The notes under the pieces are model-generated. The model saw only the letters and a list, made by a program, of their open reading frames with translations, did no database searches and was not told the DNA's origin. A DNA stretch of 64,000 bases from an uncultured Chloroflexota bacterium (GTDB taxonomy: Bacteria > Chloroflexota > Anaerolineae > 4572-78 > J111), in NCBI GenBank assembly GCA_937864185.1, contig CALMIS010000275.1, forward strand, positions 13,125 through 77,124, in the 5' to 3' direction. The position numbers and the translations under genes were made by a program. Of the stretch, positions 2,358 to 51,979 are shown one piece after another. Each line of letters begins with the position of its first letter. Position 1 is the first letter of the stretch.

Positions 2358-4754
2358 TTAGGCAGTTTGGGAAACGATTTCGAGATCGCGACTGCGCTCT
2401 TCGCCGACGCTTTGAGACGGGGCACAGACCGGCAGCAGCACGTGAAAGGTGCTGCCGGGTAAATTCTTCTCATCATGTTTTTCACTTTCTACCCAAACCT
2501 GACCGCCGTGGGCCACGATGATGCCGCGGGCGACCGCCAAGCCTAAGCCAGGTCCGCCGCCCTTGAATTTGGTTTCGCCGGAAGAGTGGAGGGCAACCTG
2601 ACCGGTTTGGTAAAACTTTTCAAAGATCTGTTCATGATGTTCGGGGTCGATGCCGATGCCGCTGTCGCGCACGAGAATTTCGACGAGGGGGACCTCGCCG
2701 GGCGGCTCGAGGAGTTGACCGATAACGCTGATCTGGCCACCATCAGGCGTATACTTGATGGCGTTGACGATCAGGTTGTAAAACACCTTTTTAAGCAGAT
2801 CAGGGTCAGCTTCGATAGCCGGAAGCGCGGTGAGGTCTGTCAACGCTAGGTTAAGGTGACGCTCTTGTTTCACCTCAGCAAAAGTGTCGATGATCTCCGC
2901 TATTAACCGGTGCAGTTCAAGCTTCTCGAATTGAGGCCGGAGGACTTCGGTATCGATGCGGGCTACATCGAGCATGGCGTTGACGATTTGGTGGAGGCGG
3001 TTTACCCCGGTGTTGATTCCGCCCAGCAATTCAGCCGCTTGCTGATCCTGGCCAATCGGCGACATGAGGCTTAGGATCTGGCTATAACCTTTGATCACTG
3101 ATAACGGAGTCCGTAGCTCATGGGAGATGACGTTGATAAAGTCACTTTTGGTTTGGTCCAGTTGCTCAAGTAGCTTATAGGCTTTGTTGAGTTCGGCGGT
3201 GCGCTGCGCTACTTTTTGCTCCAGATGTTCGTTGAGCTGGGTGATCTCATCGTACAGATTGGCGTTTTCCAGGGCAATGGCCGCCTGACCGGCAAAAGCG
3301 AGAGCCATGGTGACATCATCCATCGTGAAGGCGTTACACTCGCGCCGAGTCAGCGCCATCATGCCTAAGACCTTGCTGTGCGAGATCAGAGGCACACCCA
3401 GCCAGGAGTGGTAAAGTGGGCGATCGCTACTAAGAGGCCACTCTTTTTCACCGGTCACATCGTTGATCAGAACCGGGCGGCGGGTCTCGGTAATGCGCTG
3501 AAAAATTTTCTCCGAGCCAAGGGGAGTCCCCGACGAGTTGGCCTGTTCTTGACCGGGGGCACTGCGCTGGGCCAGGCTGTAAAGGTCGTTCTCTCGCTGA
3601 AGAAGAATAGAGCCGTGCTCGTACGGGACCACCATAGCCAGCTCTTTGAGGATCCGCTTGGGTACCTGCCGGGTGTTGAAGCTACCGGATAAGACCCGGC
3701 TGGATTGTTCCAAAGACTCCGCTAGACGACGGCGGCGCTGCTCGACTTTGTAAAACTCAGCGTTGCGGATAGCAATGGCAATCTGGTCCCCCAGCGCTTG
3801 CAAGGCCAAAATATCATCATCGCTGAAGGCAGCAATGGCTTGGCTCATCACTTCCAAGGCGCCAATGCTCTCCTGACCCAGACGGAGGGGCAATGTCAGA
3901 ATTGAGCGAGCGGCAGGTAAGTCTTGGATCGCCAGTTGTTTGGTCGCGGTGGAGATGTCCTCGATGAGATGGTAGATGCCTTGATGGCCTACCCAAACAA
4001 CCGTGTAATCAGCTTGATGAATAGGGACGCTGGTGCCACGGGGTGGTAGACTCAGTTCTCGCGTGCCGGCGCCGGCCTGTAAAATCATCAGGCCCCGCTC
4101 TTCTTCCATCAGCCAGATACCGACAAAGTAATAGCCAAATTTAGATTGAATGAGCTCAACCACCCGATTCATAAGTTCATCCAGATCGAGGATGGAGGTC
4201 ACCTCGCGGGCAAGTTCAGTGCTAGTTTCAAGCTGAATAGTGCGTTTGAGTAAGGTGTTGTTCATCTTCTCAAACAGCTCGGCTTGCTCAGTGACGTCTC
4301 GAGTCAGCTTTCTGAGCCGGAGGTGCGTGTTGAGCCGGGCCAGGACTTCATCGAATTGCAAGGGCTTGATGACGTAATCAATTCCGCCGACTTGGAAGCC
4401 TTTGACCTTGTCGCTGGCTTCAGCCAGAGCAGTCATGAAGATGACCGGGATGTCACGAGTTTGGCGCTCGGCTTTGAGCTGCCGGCAGGTTTCGAAGCCA
4501 TCGATGCCCGGCATCAGCACATCAAGCAAAATAATATCTGGTTGGACGTAGAGAGCCTTTTGGAGGGCACTCTCGCCACTTCGAGCGACCAGGATGCGGA
4601 AACCGTAGCTTTTAAGATAGTTGGAAAGGACGCCCAAGTTGGTGGGATTGTCATCGACGATGAGAATAGTATGGCTGTAGTTCGTATCACCACCGGTTTC
4701 CGTACCGAGACTAGCCTCAGTTGCCGTTGCGGCTTCGTTTCGAGCGTGTTCCAT
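2358..4754 (-). CDS. hybrid sensor: N-terminal receiver + 2 GAF domains + HisKA/HATPase histidine kinase
   Basis: Receiver motifs ILIVDD...LLDVLMPGIDG...KP. Two GAF ends (IAIRNAEFY, IALENANLY). H-box [14 protein letters not shown] and G-boxes DSGIGI, GPGLGL. The ATG at 4754 is used; the track start at 4823 lies deeper inside the upstream gene. Confidence 0.85.
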   Translation of the reverse strand: MEHARNEAATATEASLGTETGGDTNYSHTILIVDDNPTNLGVLSNYLKSYGFRILVARSGESALQKALYVQPDIILLDVLMPGIDGFETCRQLKAERQTRDIPVIFMTALAEASDKVKGFQVGGIDYVIKPLQFDEVLARLNTHLRLRKLTRDVTEQAELFEKMNNTLLKRTIQLETSTELAREVTSILDLDELMNRVVELIQSKFGYYFVGIWLMEEERGLMILQAGAGTRELSLPPRGTSVPIHQADYTVVWVGHQGIYHLIEDISTATKQLAIQDLPAARSILTLPLRLGQESIGALEVMSQAIAAFSDDDILALQALGDQIAIAIRNAEFYKVEQRRRRLAESLEQSSRVLSGSFNTRQVPKRILKELAMVVPYEHGSILLQRENDLYSLAQRSAPGQEQANSSGTPLGSEKIFQRITETRRPVLINDVTGEKEWPLSSDRPLYHSWLGVPLISHSKVLGMMALTRRECNAFTMDDVTMALAFAGQAAIALENANLYDEITQLNEHLEQKVAQRTAELNKAYKLLEQLDQTKSDFINVISHELRTPLSVIKGYSQILSLMSPIGQDQQAAELLGGINTGVNRLHQIVNAMLDVARIDTEVLRPQFEKLELHRLIAEIIDTFAEVKQERHLNLALTDLTALPAIEADPDLLKKVFYNLIVNAIKYTPDGGQISVIGQLLEPPGEVPLVEILVRDSGIGIDPEHHEQIFEKFYQTGQVALHSSGETKFKGGGPGLGLAVARGIIVAHGGQVWVESEKHDEKNLPGSTFHVLLPVCAPSQSVGEERSRDLEIVSQTA

Positions 4755-49480: not shown

Positions 49481-51127
49481 TCACGCTCCGGCCTCCTGCT
49501 TTGCGGCCAAGTAGTCCGTGTAGCCTCCCAGGTAAGTGGCTAACGTCCCTCGTTCCGGCGCCAACTCGACCACCTGATCAACAACTTTATCCAAAAAGTA
49601 GCGATCGTGCGAAATGACAAAAACGGTCCCGTTGAACTGGTCGAGGGCGGTTTCCAGTACCTCGGCGGACTGGATGTCAAGGTTGTTGGTCGGCTCGTCG
49701 AGCAGGAGAAAGTTAGGTTCTTGCAGCATCAGGAGCGCAAATTGCAGCCGGCTGCGCTCGCCGCCGCTCAAACTGCCGACGGTTTGAGTTTTAGCCCGTT
49801 GGTAGGGGAACAAGAAGCGTCCCAAAAAGGCGATGGCTTGGTCCTCGTACATCGGCTTGAGGTCGCGCACGGTCTCGACCAGCGATTTGCCGTAGTCCAG
49901 GCTCTGGTGCTCCTGGGTGTAGATCCCCAACTTGACGCTCGGCCCGATTTTGATCAGGCCCCCGGTGGGCTGCTCCTGGCCCACGATGCACCGGAACAGC
50001 ACGCTTTTTCCGGCTCCGTTTGGCCCAACCAGACCGACCCGCATCCCGTGCCAGAGGGTCAGGTTGACTCCGGCCAAAATCAGGTCATCGCCAAAGGCTT
50101 TGACCAGGTCGATGATCTCCAGCACTTTATCCGAGCCACGCCAGCCATCGAACTGAAGCCCTATATTCTGCGCTTCAACGGGCTTATCGACTTTATCCAT
50201 CTGCTCGATCTGGCGGCGCTTGTTACGGGCCTGCTTGATGTGGCGCTCATCGACCACCAGCCGGGCCCACAACTCAAAGCGAGCAATGGCTGCCTCCAGC
50301 CTGGCGATCTCTTTTTGTTGGGCGGTGTACAACTGCGTCTGGCGCAGGCGGGCCAACTCTTTGGCGGCGACGTAAGCGCTGTAGTTGCCGTTGGGATAGA
50401 AGGTCAGCCGGCCGCCGTCTAGCTCAACGATGCCATCGGCGACCTCGTCCAGCAGGTAGCGATCATGGGAGACAATCAGCACCGCGCCGGCGTAGTTTTT
50501 GATAAACTGCTCCAGGCGCTGTTTGCCCGGGAGATCAAGGTGGTTGTCCGGCTCATCGAGCAGCAGCACCGCCGGTTGGGTAATGACCAGTTTGGTTAGA
50601 GCCAGCATCTTTTTTTGACCGCCGCTCAAAGCGGTCGTGGAGAGGTTGAACTCGGCCGGGTCGAAGCCAAGCTGACGTAGCGTGGCTTTGACAGTATTTT
50701 CGTAGCTCAGGCCGCCGGCTTCGGCGTAATCTTGGAGCAGGCGGGCCTGCCGGTCGAGCGCCCGGCTCAGAGCCGCCTCGTCGCCATAGACCGCCGGATC
50801 GCCGAGCGAAGCTTCGACTTGAGCGAGTAAAGCTTCGATCCGGGCCAACTGGCTGGACGCCGTTAGCGCTTCGCTCAGGACGGTGCGCTCCGTTTCAAAT
50901 ACGATTTCCTGGGGCAGATACTCCACCGTTATCCCTTTGGCAGCAATGACCTGCCCCTCGTCCGGCGGCAGTTGAGCGGCCAGCAGGCGGAGCAGGGTGC
51001 TTTTGCCGGCGCCATTCGGCCCGACCAGGCCGAGTTTTTCGTGGTGCTGGATGGCCCAGTTGAGGTTGGTCAGCCGCAGACCCTGAGGGTGGCTGAATGT
51101 GGCGCGATCCATTCGAATTGCAATCAT
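49481..51127 (-). CDS. ABC-F family ATPase (two ABC domains, no TM domain)
   Basis: Walker A GPNGAGKST and GPNGAGKSV. Signatures LSGGQKKM and LSGGERSR. Arg/Lys-rich interdomain linker. GGAGGA SD upstream. Confidence 0.9.
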   Translation of the reverse strand: MIAIRMDRATFSHPQGLRLTNLNWAIQHHEKLGLVGPNGAGKSTLLRLLAAQLPPDEGQVIAAKGITVEYLPQEIVFETERTVLSEALTASSQLARIEALLAQVEASLGDPAVYGDEAALSRALDRQARLLQDYAEAGGLSYENTVKATLRQLGFDPAEFNLSTTALSGGQKKMLALTKLVITQPAVLLLDEPDNHLDLPGKQRLEQFIKNYAGAVLIVSHDRYLLDEVADGIVELDGGRLTFYPNGNYSAYVAAKELARLRQTQLYTAQQKEIARLEAAIARFELWARLVVDERHIKQARNKRRQIEQMDKVDKPVEAQNIGLQFDGWRGSDKVLEIIDLVKAFGDDLILAGVNLTLWHGMRVGLVGPNGAGKSVLFRCIVGQEQPTGGLIKIGPSVKLGIYTQEHQSLDYGKSLVETVRDLKPMYEDQAIAFLGRFLFPYQRAKTQTVGSLSGGERSRLQFALLMLQEPNFLLLDEPTNNLDIQSAEVLETALDQFNGTVFVISHDRYFLDKVVDQVVELAPERGTLATYLGGYTDYLAAKQEAGA

Positions 51128-51194
51128 AAGTTATTCCTCCGTACCAAGATAAAGGCGTGGATCATCTCGTCGCCCCGGCTTGGCCGCAGGAATC

Positions 51195-51228
51195 AAAAAA
51201 CCGTGGACGACGGGTGCATCCACGGTTT
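51195..51228 (-). terminator. leader terminator T2 (proximal) upstream of the ABC-F gene
   Basis: Minus-strand AAACCGTGGA...TCCACGGTTTTTT, a stem of at least 10 bp with a U6 tract, 68 nt upstream of the ATG. Confidence 0.7.
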
Positions 51229-51243
51229 GAAACGAGTTTACAT

Positions 51244-51287
51244 AAAAAATTGCCGTGGGACGCACTACGAGTAGGCGTCCGCCACGG
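51244..51287 (-). terminator. leader terminator T1 (distal) upstream of the ABC-F gene
   Basis: Minus-strand CCGTGGCGGACGC-loop-GCGTCCCACGG (11 bp with a 2-nt bulge) followed by CAATTTTTT. Confidence 0.65.
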
Positions 51288-51353
51288 TGGAAGCTTGAAT
51301 AGAAAAGTTTAGGGAAAAATTGAGAGCCGAATTTTGGTAAATCACAAGCCGAA

Positions 51354-51381
51354 ATTATAGGACCTTGTTGCCCTGTGTCAA
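51354..51381 (-). promoter_or_regulatory. consensus sigma70 promoter for the ABC-F leader
   Basis: Minus-strand TTGACA (51381-51376), a 16-nt spacer and TATAAT (51359-51354). Confidence 0.7.
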
Positions 51382-51979
51382 ATTCCCCGTCGACGAGAAA
51401 TGCCGCGCCCGAGAACTGCCCCTGCCCCCAAGAGGGTCACCAGAGTTACCACGCCAGATGATCACCATAGAGATAGAGGTCATCTCGGAGGAGAAAGCCG
51501 GCGTAGTGCCAGGCTACCAGCCCTACGCCCACCAAGACAGCCAGGTCGATTGACAGACCAAGAGGAAATAAAGTAGGTTTGGAGGAGGTTAGATGATCAA
51601 GAACATACCTTACTTTTCGCAAGATGATCTGTATTGTTTTCATTATTGGCTAACAGTATGTACAATGGCCCTGCCAGCCGTTGGCGCACCCACTCAAAAT
51701 GGCGGCTACTTGCTCCTCGACTAGGCCTACCCGCCGGAAATAAAAGAACCGGGCACGAAAGTCCGTCCATAGGTAGATTAGTCTAAGGGTCACACCGCTG
51801 GGTGCGTTACGGATAGATGTGAACTAGGTTGGGAATTTTGATAGGAAAAAACCTGGAAAGAAACTTGGTGGCAGATAAGGTAACTTATTTGCCTGAATTA
51901 TAGAGCGTTATGAGGCGGTTTCAAATTCTTAACAAAGTAATATCAGGGTTTGACCTTACAGGAAGGAGAGAGTCTGGCG

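Follow-up and report, generated by a model that had tools for sequence, protein, structure and literature searches.

The DNA analysed here, a 64-kb window from an uncultured bacterium of the Anaerolineae (Chloroflexota), carries an intact gene for an ABC-F ATPase of 548 amino acids (49481..51127), with two ABC domains, an arm insert and an interdomain linker similar in length to that of EttA; a C-terminal extension is lacking. The gene, its promoter and the leader between them all lie on the minus strand, and all coordinates are positions in the window. On comparing promoter, upstream open reading frame (uORF), hairpins, alternative pairings and gene association with those of related leaders, we consider it highly likely that the leader is a ribosome-mediated (leader-peptide) transcription attenuator controlling the ABC-F gene.

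The promoter is of the sigma-70 type (51354..51381), with TTGACA at 51381-51376, a 16-nt spacer and TATAAT at 51359-51354. As a sequence-only reading of this stretch had claimed, it lies about 215 nt 5' of the ABC-F start; it is the sole perfect TTGACA-16-TATAAT in the 64 kb, with no match in 100 shuffles, and TTGAC[AG]-N16/17-TATAAT stands upstream of the leader in nearly all relatives in our alignments. A promoter scan between the terminator T2, described below, and the ABC-F start found no promoter-like site, in agreement with the same reading. The gene is thus equipped like other members of this attenuator class, with a promoter of its own and a long 5' leader directly before it. Nearly at the promoter begins the leader peptide gene uORF1 (51265..51345), with a GTG start, 26 codons (MIYQNSALNFSLNFSIQASTVADAYS) and a UAG stop at 51267-51265. 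Its GTG lies 8 nt past the -10 box, and a subclade of relatives has an ATG at the same distance of 7-8 nt; with the start so close to the -10 box, the uORF1 mRNA is probably leaderless or nearly so.

The leader travels with the gene. Among the first 40 relatives searched, six have an orthologue at 71-75% identity, in each case behind the same leader. With a covariance model built from seven leaders (R1), a single copy was detected per genome in 11 of the family's 31 genomes, and one further copy in another family of the order; all the further copies precede an orthologous ABC-F, so that the whole leader accompanies the gene in 12 genomes, with upstream neighbours that differ between relatives. 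A metagenome scan with a pattern of hub, linker and terminator (all defined below) gave ten loci, including two duplicate pairs and one repeat of a genome locus (L043), and all of them precede a window-type ABC-F. The pair of leader and gene occurs in five other genera of the family, and both are absent from the three other genomes of the window's own genus (G001-G003), for which reason the pair looks like an accessory element; the patchiness suggests that gene and leader were gained, lost or transferred as a unit. In one complete genome (L008), the ABC-F orthologue is 57% identical and lacks a leader of this kind.

These distributions bear on the rival reading that there is no regulation at all: the hairpins would end an upstream transcript or be unrelated, and the small ORFs would be there by chance. 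A near-consensus promoter on the same strand (TTGAAA-16-TATAAT, 11 of 12 positions; 51897-51924, minus), about 540 nt upstream of the ABC-F promoter, could indeed send transcripts into the leader. Yet a perfect promoter stands immediately 5' of the uORF, and promoter, uORF, hairpins and terminators keep company with the ABC-F gene across neighbourhoods, genera and families. This contradicts the option, raised by the sequence-only reading against itself, that the terminators merely end an upstream transcript, and we regard the absence of regulation as scarcely credible.

A more distant case was seen in a metagenome-assembled genome of the Chloroflexia (L055, 930-1180, plus), where a 53%-identical ABC-F has a diverged leader of uORF and terminator: a promoter and a 36-codon uORF with ..IAAP.. 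(GCUGCGCCC) are followed by AUAUUGAAGUGUAUGCAA and the terminator CCGUGGGCC..GGUUCACGG-U6. It may be a distant relative of the window's leader family.

For coding tests of uORF1, we used 18 leaders related to that of the window (group A). The frame is open in all 18, with 24-27 codons (26 in 15 of them), and the consensus peptide reads M-x-[YF]-Q-N-P-A-L-N-x-x-[LI]-N-x-S-x-Q-x-S-T-x-x-[DGE]-A-x-x. In frame, amino-acid identity averages 0.515, as against 0.336 and 0.304 in the other frames, which are interrupted by stops in 17 and 12 of the 18 leaders. Differences amount to 452 at third codon positions versus 253 and 207 at first and second positions, and synonymous variation is found at the conserved residues P6, A7, L8, N13, Q17 and S19: four codons are in use for Pro6, three for Ala7 and four for Leu8, and Ser15 is written with both TCT and AGY. 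Given the open frame, the synonymous variation, the third-position excess and the in-frame identity, uORF1 has the signature of a translated, conserved leader peptide. The upstream ORF typical of ABC-F attenuators is thereby accounted for by a coding signature in 18 leaders, and the 26-residue GTG ORF of the sequence-only reading, said to end in its first terminator, exists as described, with its stop in the apical part of the hairpin there. A second small ORF to which that reading had pointed, of 13 codons (MIHAFILVRRNNL; 51124..51165), does overlap the ABC-F start as it said, but is not conserved across relatives: it is missing in five of them, and in the rest is unrelated in sequence and length. 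We therefore rejected it as a regulator and regard it as a chance ORF arising from the ATGA start context.

Two hairpins follow in the leader, and the stretch that holds both folds at -37.5 kcal/mol (z = -4.46). The first, H1 (51253..51287; the T1 of the sequence-only reading), has as its 5' strand CCGUGG..GACGC, that is, codons 20-24 of uORF1, and as its 3' strand GCGUCCCACGG; the uORF1 stop codon lies inside its apical part. Its GGACGC/GCGUCC pairs are kept in all seven seed leaders, with U-A to C-G covariation at a flanking pair. The second is the intrinsic terminator T2 (51195..51228), with the stem AAACCGUGGAUG..CGUCCACGGUUU (51228..51198) and a U6 run at 51200-51195. Over 17 leaders, its 10 pairs are 93.5% paired, and 3 of them show compensatory changes. 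RNAalifold predicts both H1 and T2, with compensatory changes present. A predicted conserved stem with a U6 run thus lies between the uORF and the main ORF, where an attenuator of this class has its terminator, and T2 stands as a terminator with a U-tract just as first read. T1 did so in part: in the window the hairpin is extended and trailed by a U-run (CAAUUUUUU directly after 51287..51253), unlike the family norm, whereas the relatives retain the hairpin without the U-tract. Since relatives keep the one and not the other, H1 is, as judged from the alignment, an anti-antiterminator or pause hairpin and not a conserved terminator.

H1 and T2 have strands that nearly repeat one another, so that a third helix can form between them. 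We number the segments 1 to 4, with 1 and 2 the strands of H1 and 3 and 4 those of T2. Segment 2, the hub GUGCGUCCCACGG (51253..51265), begins at the G of the uORF1 UAG stop and can have as its partner either segment 1, in H1, or segment 3 (CCGUGGAUGCAC; 51214..51225), which comprises the T2 5' strand and the first loop bases and serves as the 3' strand of the antiterminator. Its core, GUG.G.CC, is invariant in 23 of 23 aligned leaders. In the window, GUGCGUCCCACGG (51265..51253) pairs with CCGUGGAUGCAC (51225..51214) at -17.5 kcal/mol, the H1 3' strand GUGCGUCC.. being also complementary to the ..GGACGCAC of segment 3. Across 17 leaders the 8 pairs of this 2:3 helix are paired in 95.6% of cells, as against 26-68% in slid controls, and a U-A to C-G double change is found in five sequences. 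The conserved pairs include those to the first two T2 loop bases, which a plain terminator has no need to conserve. When the piece from segment 2 to the T2 loop is folded alone, the antiterminator forms in 17 of 17 leaders, at -10.7 to -20.4 kcal/mol versus -13 to -25 for T2. The upstream strand with which it competes, segment 1, coincides with codons 20-24, so that the antiterminator excludes T2 and its alternative partner can be covered by a ribosome. The pairing of the T1 3' arm with the T2 5' arm, proposed from the single sequence, is hence real, longer than first stated and kept over 17 leaders; and of the 1:2 / 2:3 / 3:4 logic drawn from it, both the 2:3 and the 3:4 helices are maintained across relatives. 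Folding of the leader predicts H1, T2 and the alternative antiterminator fold, and the alignment of orthologous leaders yields a conserved uORF, covariation and alternative pairing alike.

From this arrangement we infer how the switch would work, including default termination at T2, stall position, direction of regulation, role of the peptide, pausing at the linker and the inducer. Transcription would begin at the consensus promoter, nearly at the GTG of the 26-codon ORF, whose codons 20-24 form segment 1, with segment 2 (GUGCGUCCCACGG) starting from the G of the UAG. By default, with no ribosome on the leader or with one at the stop codon covering segment 2, the 1:2 (H1) and 3:4 (T2) hairpins would form, transcription would stop at T2's U6 run, leaving the ABC-F gene off. 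Upon induction, a ribosome would stall late, with its P site at about codons 19-23, and cover segment 1 alone; segment 2 would then pair with segment 3 and the T2 loop, and the antiterminator so formed would preclude T2 and allow read-through into the ABC-F gene. During such a stall, residues 13-20 would be near the peptidyl-transferase centre and residues 4-9 further down the exit tunnel. When a ribosome footprint was masked with the P site moved from codon to codon, the window's T2 left the equilibrium ensemble only at codons 19-23, which is consistent with this position. Between H1 and T2, a linker probably acts at the level of RNA or DNA and may pause the polymerase.

The architecture equals that of the classical attenuators, and residues 5, 9 and 13 (Asn) and 15, 19 and 20 (Ser/Thr) of the peptide are conserved, which could be taken for an attenuator of the trpL/hisL type that responds to starvation for Asn, Ser, Thr or Gln. 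Such attenuators of amino-acid operons have a codon run over segment 1 and biosynthetic genes downstream; here there is no tandem run of a single codon, the Asn codons lie too far upstream (masking codons 5-13 leaves T2 intact), and the controlled genes are neither biosynthetic nor related to aminoacyl-tRNA. Starvation sensing is accordingly most improbable.

In most relatives, the leader-peptide attenuator would be extended by a further step. A like-stranded second terminator, T3, was found 3' of T2 by script in 18 of 26 leaders, mostly of group A, and by eye in L002, with a spacing of 42-44 nt between T2 and T3 in most of them. Wherever T3 was found, a pairing of segment 4 with a segment 5 is predicted, so that one upstream decision could be passed down the hairpin chain; T3, about 43 nt beyond T2, would thus repeat the decision made at T2. 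Three leaders have insertions in this region: a GACGA-rich imperfect palindrome (L004, ~3140-3250, minus) and a G/C-rich palindrome, CCCCACCCTAACCCTCCCCC..GGGGGAGGGCAGGGTGGGGG (L035, ~1715-1790, plus), both between the terminators and the ABC-F start, and an 80-nt insert between T2 and T3 (L006, ~1365-1450, plus). They look like small mobile or repeat elements that landed in the leader.

Beyond the orthologous ABC-Fs, eight weak R1 matches at the level of the class all turned out to be real leaders. Five of them precede ABC-Fs that are 49-51% identical to that of the window, with a nearly identical linker region. In these leaders (group B), the peptide reads M-x-x-[IV]-x-[VLF]-G-[QH]-T-x-[LV]-x-L-P...S-[AV]-P, and its last three codons, AGU GCG CCC, are segment 2, a motif that the window reads in another frame as UAG and then UGCGUCC. 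With a shorter covariance model of hub, linker and T2 (R2), matches were obtained in 93 of 401 sampled Anaerolineae genomes and 70 of 216 genera, with at most three copies per genome. In a phylum-wide sample of 401 genomes, R2 gave no matches beyond the window's own genome and a single chance sequence, a bidirectional terminator; within the sampled genomes, the scaffold family is found in the class Anaerolineae only. The best 29 R2 loci were parsed by script and a downstream gene assigned for 27: an ABC-F in 11, an ABC-2 permease in six, a DrrA-like ABC ATPase in four, and an MFS transporter, an ABC_membrane exporter and a GNAT acetyltransferase in two each. In the other Anaerolineae genomes in which the scaffold precedes genes of these further classes (L084-L103, L042, L044, L047), each copy has a leader ORF of its own. 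Many peptides encoded before exporter, MFS and GNAT genes have ..[CR]RSAP as their ending, followed by 0 or 3 codons, the SAP being encoded by the hub AGUGCGCCC.

Between H1 and T2 lies the linker UUAUGUAAAC, with a conserved single-stranded motif, UUUUAUGUAAA (51237..51247), which is unique in the window and has the family consensus UUAUNGUNAAC; UnUUAUG is invariant in 23 of 23 aligned ABC-F leaders, with UAA next in most. The sequence-only reading had seen a start-stop in this AUG-UAA, which is present at 51243-51238 as it said, but the AUG is not kept across the family, and we reject its translation as a sensor: it has no upstream Shine-Dalgarno sequence, and neither UAG nor UGA ever serves as its stop. 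A sense codon follows the AUG in four ABC-F leaders (AUGUCA, AUGGUA or AUGUUU), and in leaders of other genes the AUG is changed to AUU, AUC, ACG or ACA, or is out of frame inside the uORF, with UUAUNGUNAAC persisting; leaders of the exporter class have a small palindrome, UUAGUUAUNGUUAACUAA, as their linker. From the lack of a Shine-Dalgarno sequence and of UAG or UGA, the sense codons after the AUG and its replacement across the family, we concluded that the linker is an element at the nucleotide level, RNA or DNA. We also rejected the idea that ribosomes read in frame past the uORF1 stop as far as the linker AUG, since the spacing varies by 1 nt among relatives, and neither a -10-like (TATTAT) sigma-pause nor a TTNTTT NusG motif fits all copies. 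The linker may be a site at which RNA polymerase pauses and so keeps step with the ribosome; a pause site is the leading idea because the vmlR leader has its NusG-dependent pause motif at the corresponding place, past the anti-antiterminator hairpin and ahead of the 3' strand of the antiterminator (PMC9226507).

Conservation of this kind would also be expected of a protein- or ligand-controlled RNA switch that binds hub and linker (GUGCGYCC ... UUAUNGUNAAC), with the uORF minor or irrelevant. The nucleotides of both are conserved across genes and reading frames, AGUGCGYCC being Ser-Ala-Pro in some leaders and a stop with untranslated bases in the window, and this conservation exceeds the needs of pairing, the linker being single-stranded in both states. 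However, segments that must pair with two partners evolve slowly anyway, and no Rfam family scores above threshold for the leader. Further, a conserved ORF ends at or near segment 2 in 27 of 28 loci across the class, the exception being cut by a contig end, and is present in every hand-aligned ABC-F leader, with the coding signature of group A in addition. We therefore hold a switch of this kind to be very unlikely as against the leader-peptide attenuator.

What such an attenuator would respond to has to be judged from the genes that it controls. The ABC-F of the window passes the generic NCBIfam model NF000355 ("ribosomal protection-like ABC-F") with 490.7 bits against a cutoff of 380. All specific NCBIfam models for antibiotic-resistance (ARE) ABC-Fs, namely Msr, Vga, Lsa, Sal, OptrA, CplR and the producer type CarA/OleB/SrmB/TlrC, scored below cutoff (295 versus 800 for the producer type and 283 versus 680 for Msr), and the housekeeping models failed likewise: EttA at 376.7 versus 599, Uup at 330.5 versus 900, the YbiT-type PRK15064 at 296 versus 762 and the YheS-type PRK10636 at 261 versus 917. 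In a comparison with solved structures, the protein is about equally far from EttA, Uup, YbiT and VmlR, and it is 38% identical to a 640-residue paralogue. As it matches the generic model and none of the named subfamilies, we place it in an uncharacterised Anaerolineae subfamily; the EttA-like length of its interdomain linker neither supports nor excludes resistance.

The genes behind the other scaffolds offer the main argument on the signal, an indirect one: as ABC-F, exporter, MFS and GNAT genes follow the same scaffold, the trigger is most likely translation slowed or arrested by a ribosome-targeting compound, with the peptide setting the specificity. This set of genes fits an inducible defence against toxic compounds, notably translation inhibitors. 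A different signal would be the state of the ABC-F itself: the leader peptide would be prone to arrest without any drug and the ABC-F would resolve the stall, so that low ABC-F activity would lead to stalling, antitermination and more ABC-F. The group A peptide is strongly conserved and found only before the window's ABC-F subfamily, it is far longer than the uORFs of 3-4 residues of PLSA-type ARE genes, and the EttA-like linker length is that of housekeeping ABC-Fs, which reportedly resolve nascent chains that are hard to translate (PMC11162784). Against such feedback, the scaffold also precedes exporters, MFS transporters and GNATs, which are unable to relieve a stall, so that the scaffold family would seem to respond to something external; and the patchy occurrence of gene and leader (11 of 31 genomes, absent from three genomes of the same genus) suggests an accessory factor. 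We thus consider feedback by the ABC-F unlikely, and sensing of ribosome-targeting compounds the better account.

If extended to the entire family, these patterns could reflect a class-wide translation-stress regulon of the Anaerolineae, a possibility that we raise tentatively and would not favour as yet. It would combine a shared RNA chassis with arrest peptides specific to each class of genes, each answering different ribosome-targeting compounds. The chassis would be made up of the hub GUGCGYCC, the linker UUAUNGUNAAC and look-alike tandem terminators joined by a domino of alternative pairings, and the peptides would be YQNPALN..LN.S.Q.ST for the window's ABC-F, VGQT.L.LP...SAP for the distant orthologues and ..[CR]RSAP for exporters, MFS transporters and GNATs, with the invariant linker as a dedicated pause or recognition element in common. 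If so, different ribosome-targeting compounds would turn on different defence genes.

Several observations weigh against the leader-peptide attenuator, or against its working in the window as it would in relatives. First, masking of the ribosome footprint switches only 3 of 17 leaders (those of the window, L007 and L041), and elsewhere T2 stays favoured. Since T2 is favoured at equilibrium in most masked leaders, the switch would have to be kinetic, like that of the classical attenuators; folding at equilibrium under a ribosome mask, which is uninformative for a kinetic switch, was therefore set aside as a test for leaders in general. Second, the window is without T3; the aligned stretch (~51173-51145) is a degenerate remnant, from which we conclude that T3 has been lost. 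Third, a helix specific to the window stands in the place of T3 (51133..51193; AUUCCU:AGGAAU) and sequesters the Shine-Dalgarno sequence GGAGGA (51140-51135). It is predicted at -26.9 kcal/mol (z = -3.0), and its opening upon antitermination was rejected, constrained folding keeping the probability of an unpaired Shine-Dalgarno sequence at 0.16-0.17. Fourth, the uORF1 of the window has Ser in place of the otherwise conserved Pro6 and a GTG start on a probably leaderless mRNA. Fifth, the attenuator model as it stands leaves the invariant linker unexplained. Sixth, the ABC-F combines an EttA-like linker length with the lack of a match to any specific resistance family. Seventh, among the sequencing runs searched for the stretch, DNA runs matched, from activated sludge and bioreactors, and no RNA run did. 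In view of the GTG start on a probably leaderless mRNA, the Ser for Pro6, the extended H1 with its U-run, the loss of T3 and the apparently static Shine-Dalgarno helix, the window's copy may be regulated differently from, or less tightly than, the family norm. The inducible ribosome-associated ABC-F of the sequence-only reading is nonetheless borne out insofar as comparison supports a promoter-driven, ribosome-dependent attenuator leader, with the roles of T1, the 13-codon uORF and the AUG-UAA corrected.

Elsewhere in the window, the near-consensus promoter at 51897-51924 is followed by an ORF for a hydrophobic protein of 65 residues (51446-51643, minus), and a 43-residue ORF with a strong Shine-Dalgarno sequence (GGAGGAGG) lies on the opposite strand (51593-51724, plus). 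A cobalamin riboswitch (RF00174; 15456-15668, minus) scores 40.5 bits, above its gathering score, and is the sole Rfam family above threshold in the window.

A full-text literature search on ABC-F subfamilies and on transcription attenuation or leader peptides in Chloroflexota returned no description of such a leader, and the family is apparently undescribed: the principle of the switch is known, the leader family is new, large and well defined, and the single locus is ordinary in principle. To our knowledge, nearly everything that has been established about ribosome-sensing leaders before inducible ABC-F and efflux genes comes from Firmicutes and Actinobacteria, and the leaders described here would extend the principle to Chloroflexota, with one RNA scaffold that serves genes of the ribosome-protection type, efflux genes and acetyltransferase genes. 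The long conserved leader peptides are candidates for new arrest sequences and could reveal natural translation inhibitors met by abundant bacteria of sludge and sediment. The covariance models can be used to annotate regulators and inducible resistance-type genes in metagenomes. For the window itself, the annotation gains a promoter, a gene for a 26-residue leader peptide, a putative attenuator and a predicted inducible ABC-F of an uncharacterised subfamily.

Among known RNA families, the trpB motif RF04312 of Firmicutes and Fusobacteria likewise has two hairpins, the first with an antiterminator strand and the second an intrinsic terminator (PMC11109978). Of the Rfam models, it alone gave a full-length, sub-threshold match to the leader, but at 29.3 bits against a gathering score of 59 we reject identity; the architecture is generic, and the two are unlike in phyla, associated genes and conserved nucleotides. 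The classical attenuators trpL, hisL and pheL share with the window's leader the four segments with their 1:2 / 2:3 / 3:4 pairings, the stop codon between segments 1 and 2, and a 1:2 hairpin followed by an A/U-rich stretch, as in a pause hairpin. They differ in that the window has no regulatory codon run, its gene is not biosynthetic, and it is the sequence of the peptide that is conserved and not its codon composition. The bmrB-bmrCD leader of Bacillus subtilis, reportedly a case of ribosome-mediated attenuation of a multidrug ABC exporter in the work of Reilman and colleagues of 2014, resembles the exporter-linked members of the scaffold family in that a longer leader peptide gene is followed by a choice between terminator and antiterminator and then by a transporter of the drug type; in the window an ABC-F lies downstream, and the peptide and RNA sequences are unrelated.

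The closest parallels are with the leaders of ABC-F genes. In the vmlR leader of Bacillus subtilis, an anti-antiterminator hairpin that holds the uORF is followed by a pause motif, a terminator and a hairpin that sequesters the Shine-Dalgarno sequence (Takada et al. 2022; PMC9226507), and ARE ABC-F genes are generally induced through stalling on a uORF. The leaders of vmlR, cplR, lmo0919/vgaL, vga(A), lmrC and msrD share with that of the window a promoter and a leader of about 200 nt before an ABC-F gene. As in the vmlR type, the window's uORF overlaps the anti-antiterminator hairpin, the antiterminator overlaps the intrinsic terminator, a conserved element separates the first hairpin from the antiterminator 3' strand, and a Shine-Dalgarno-sequestering hairpin follows the terminator; by analogy, induction by stalling on the uORF would be expected here too. 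There is no sequence similarity, however, and most copies of the linker do not match the TTNTTT of vmlR. The window's uORF has 26 codons and a conserved peptide, as against the 3-4 codons (MIN, MRI, MK[L/Q], MAGN) of the known leaders or 6-8 in macrolide sensors. Its family further differs in having hairpin strands that are near-copies of each other, with tandem look-alike terminators chained by alternative pairings in relatives, and in a scaffold that is common to several classes of genes in hosts belonging to the Chloroflexota.

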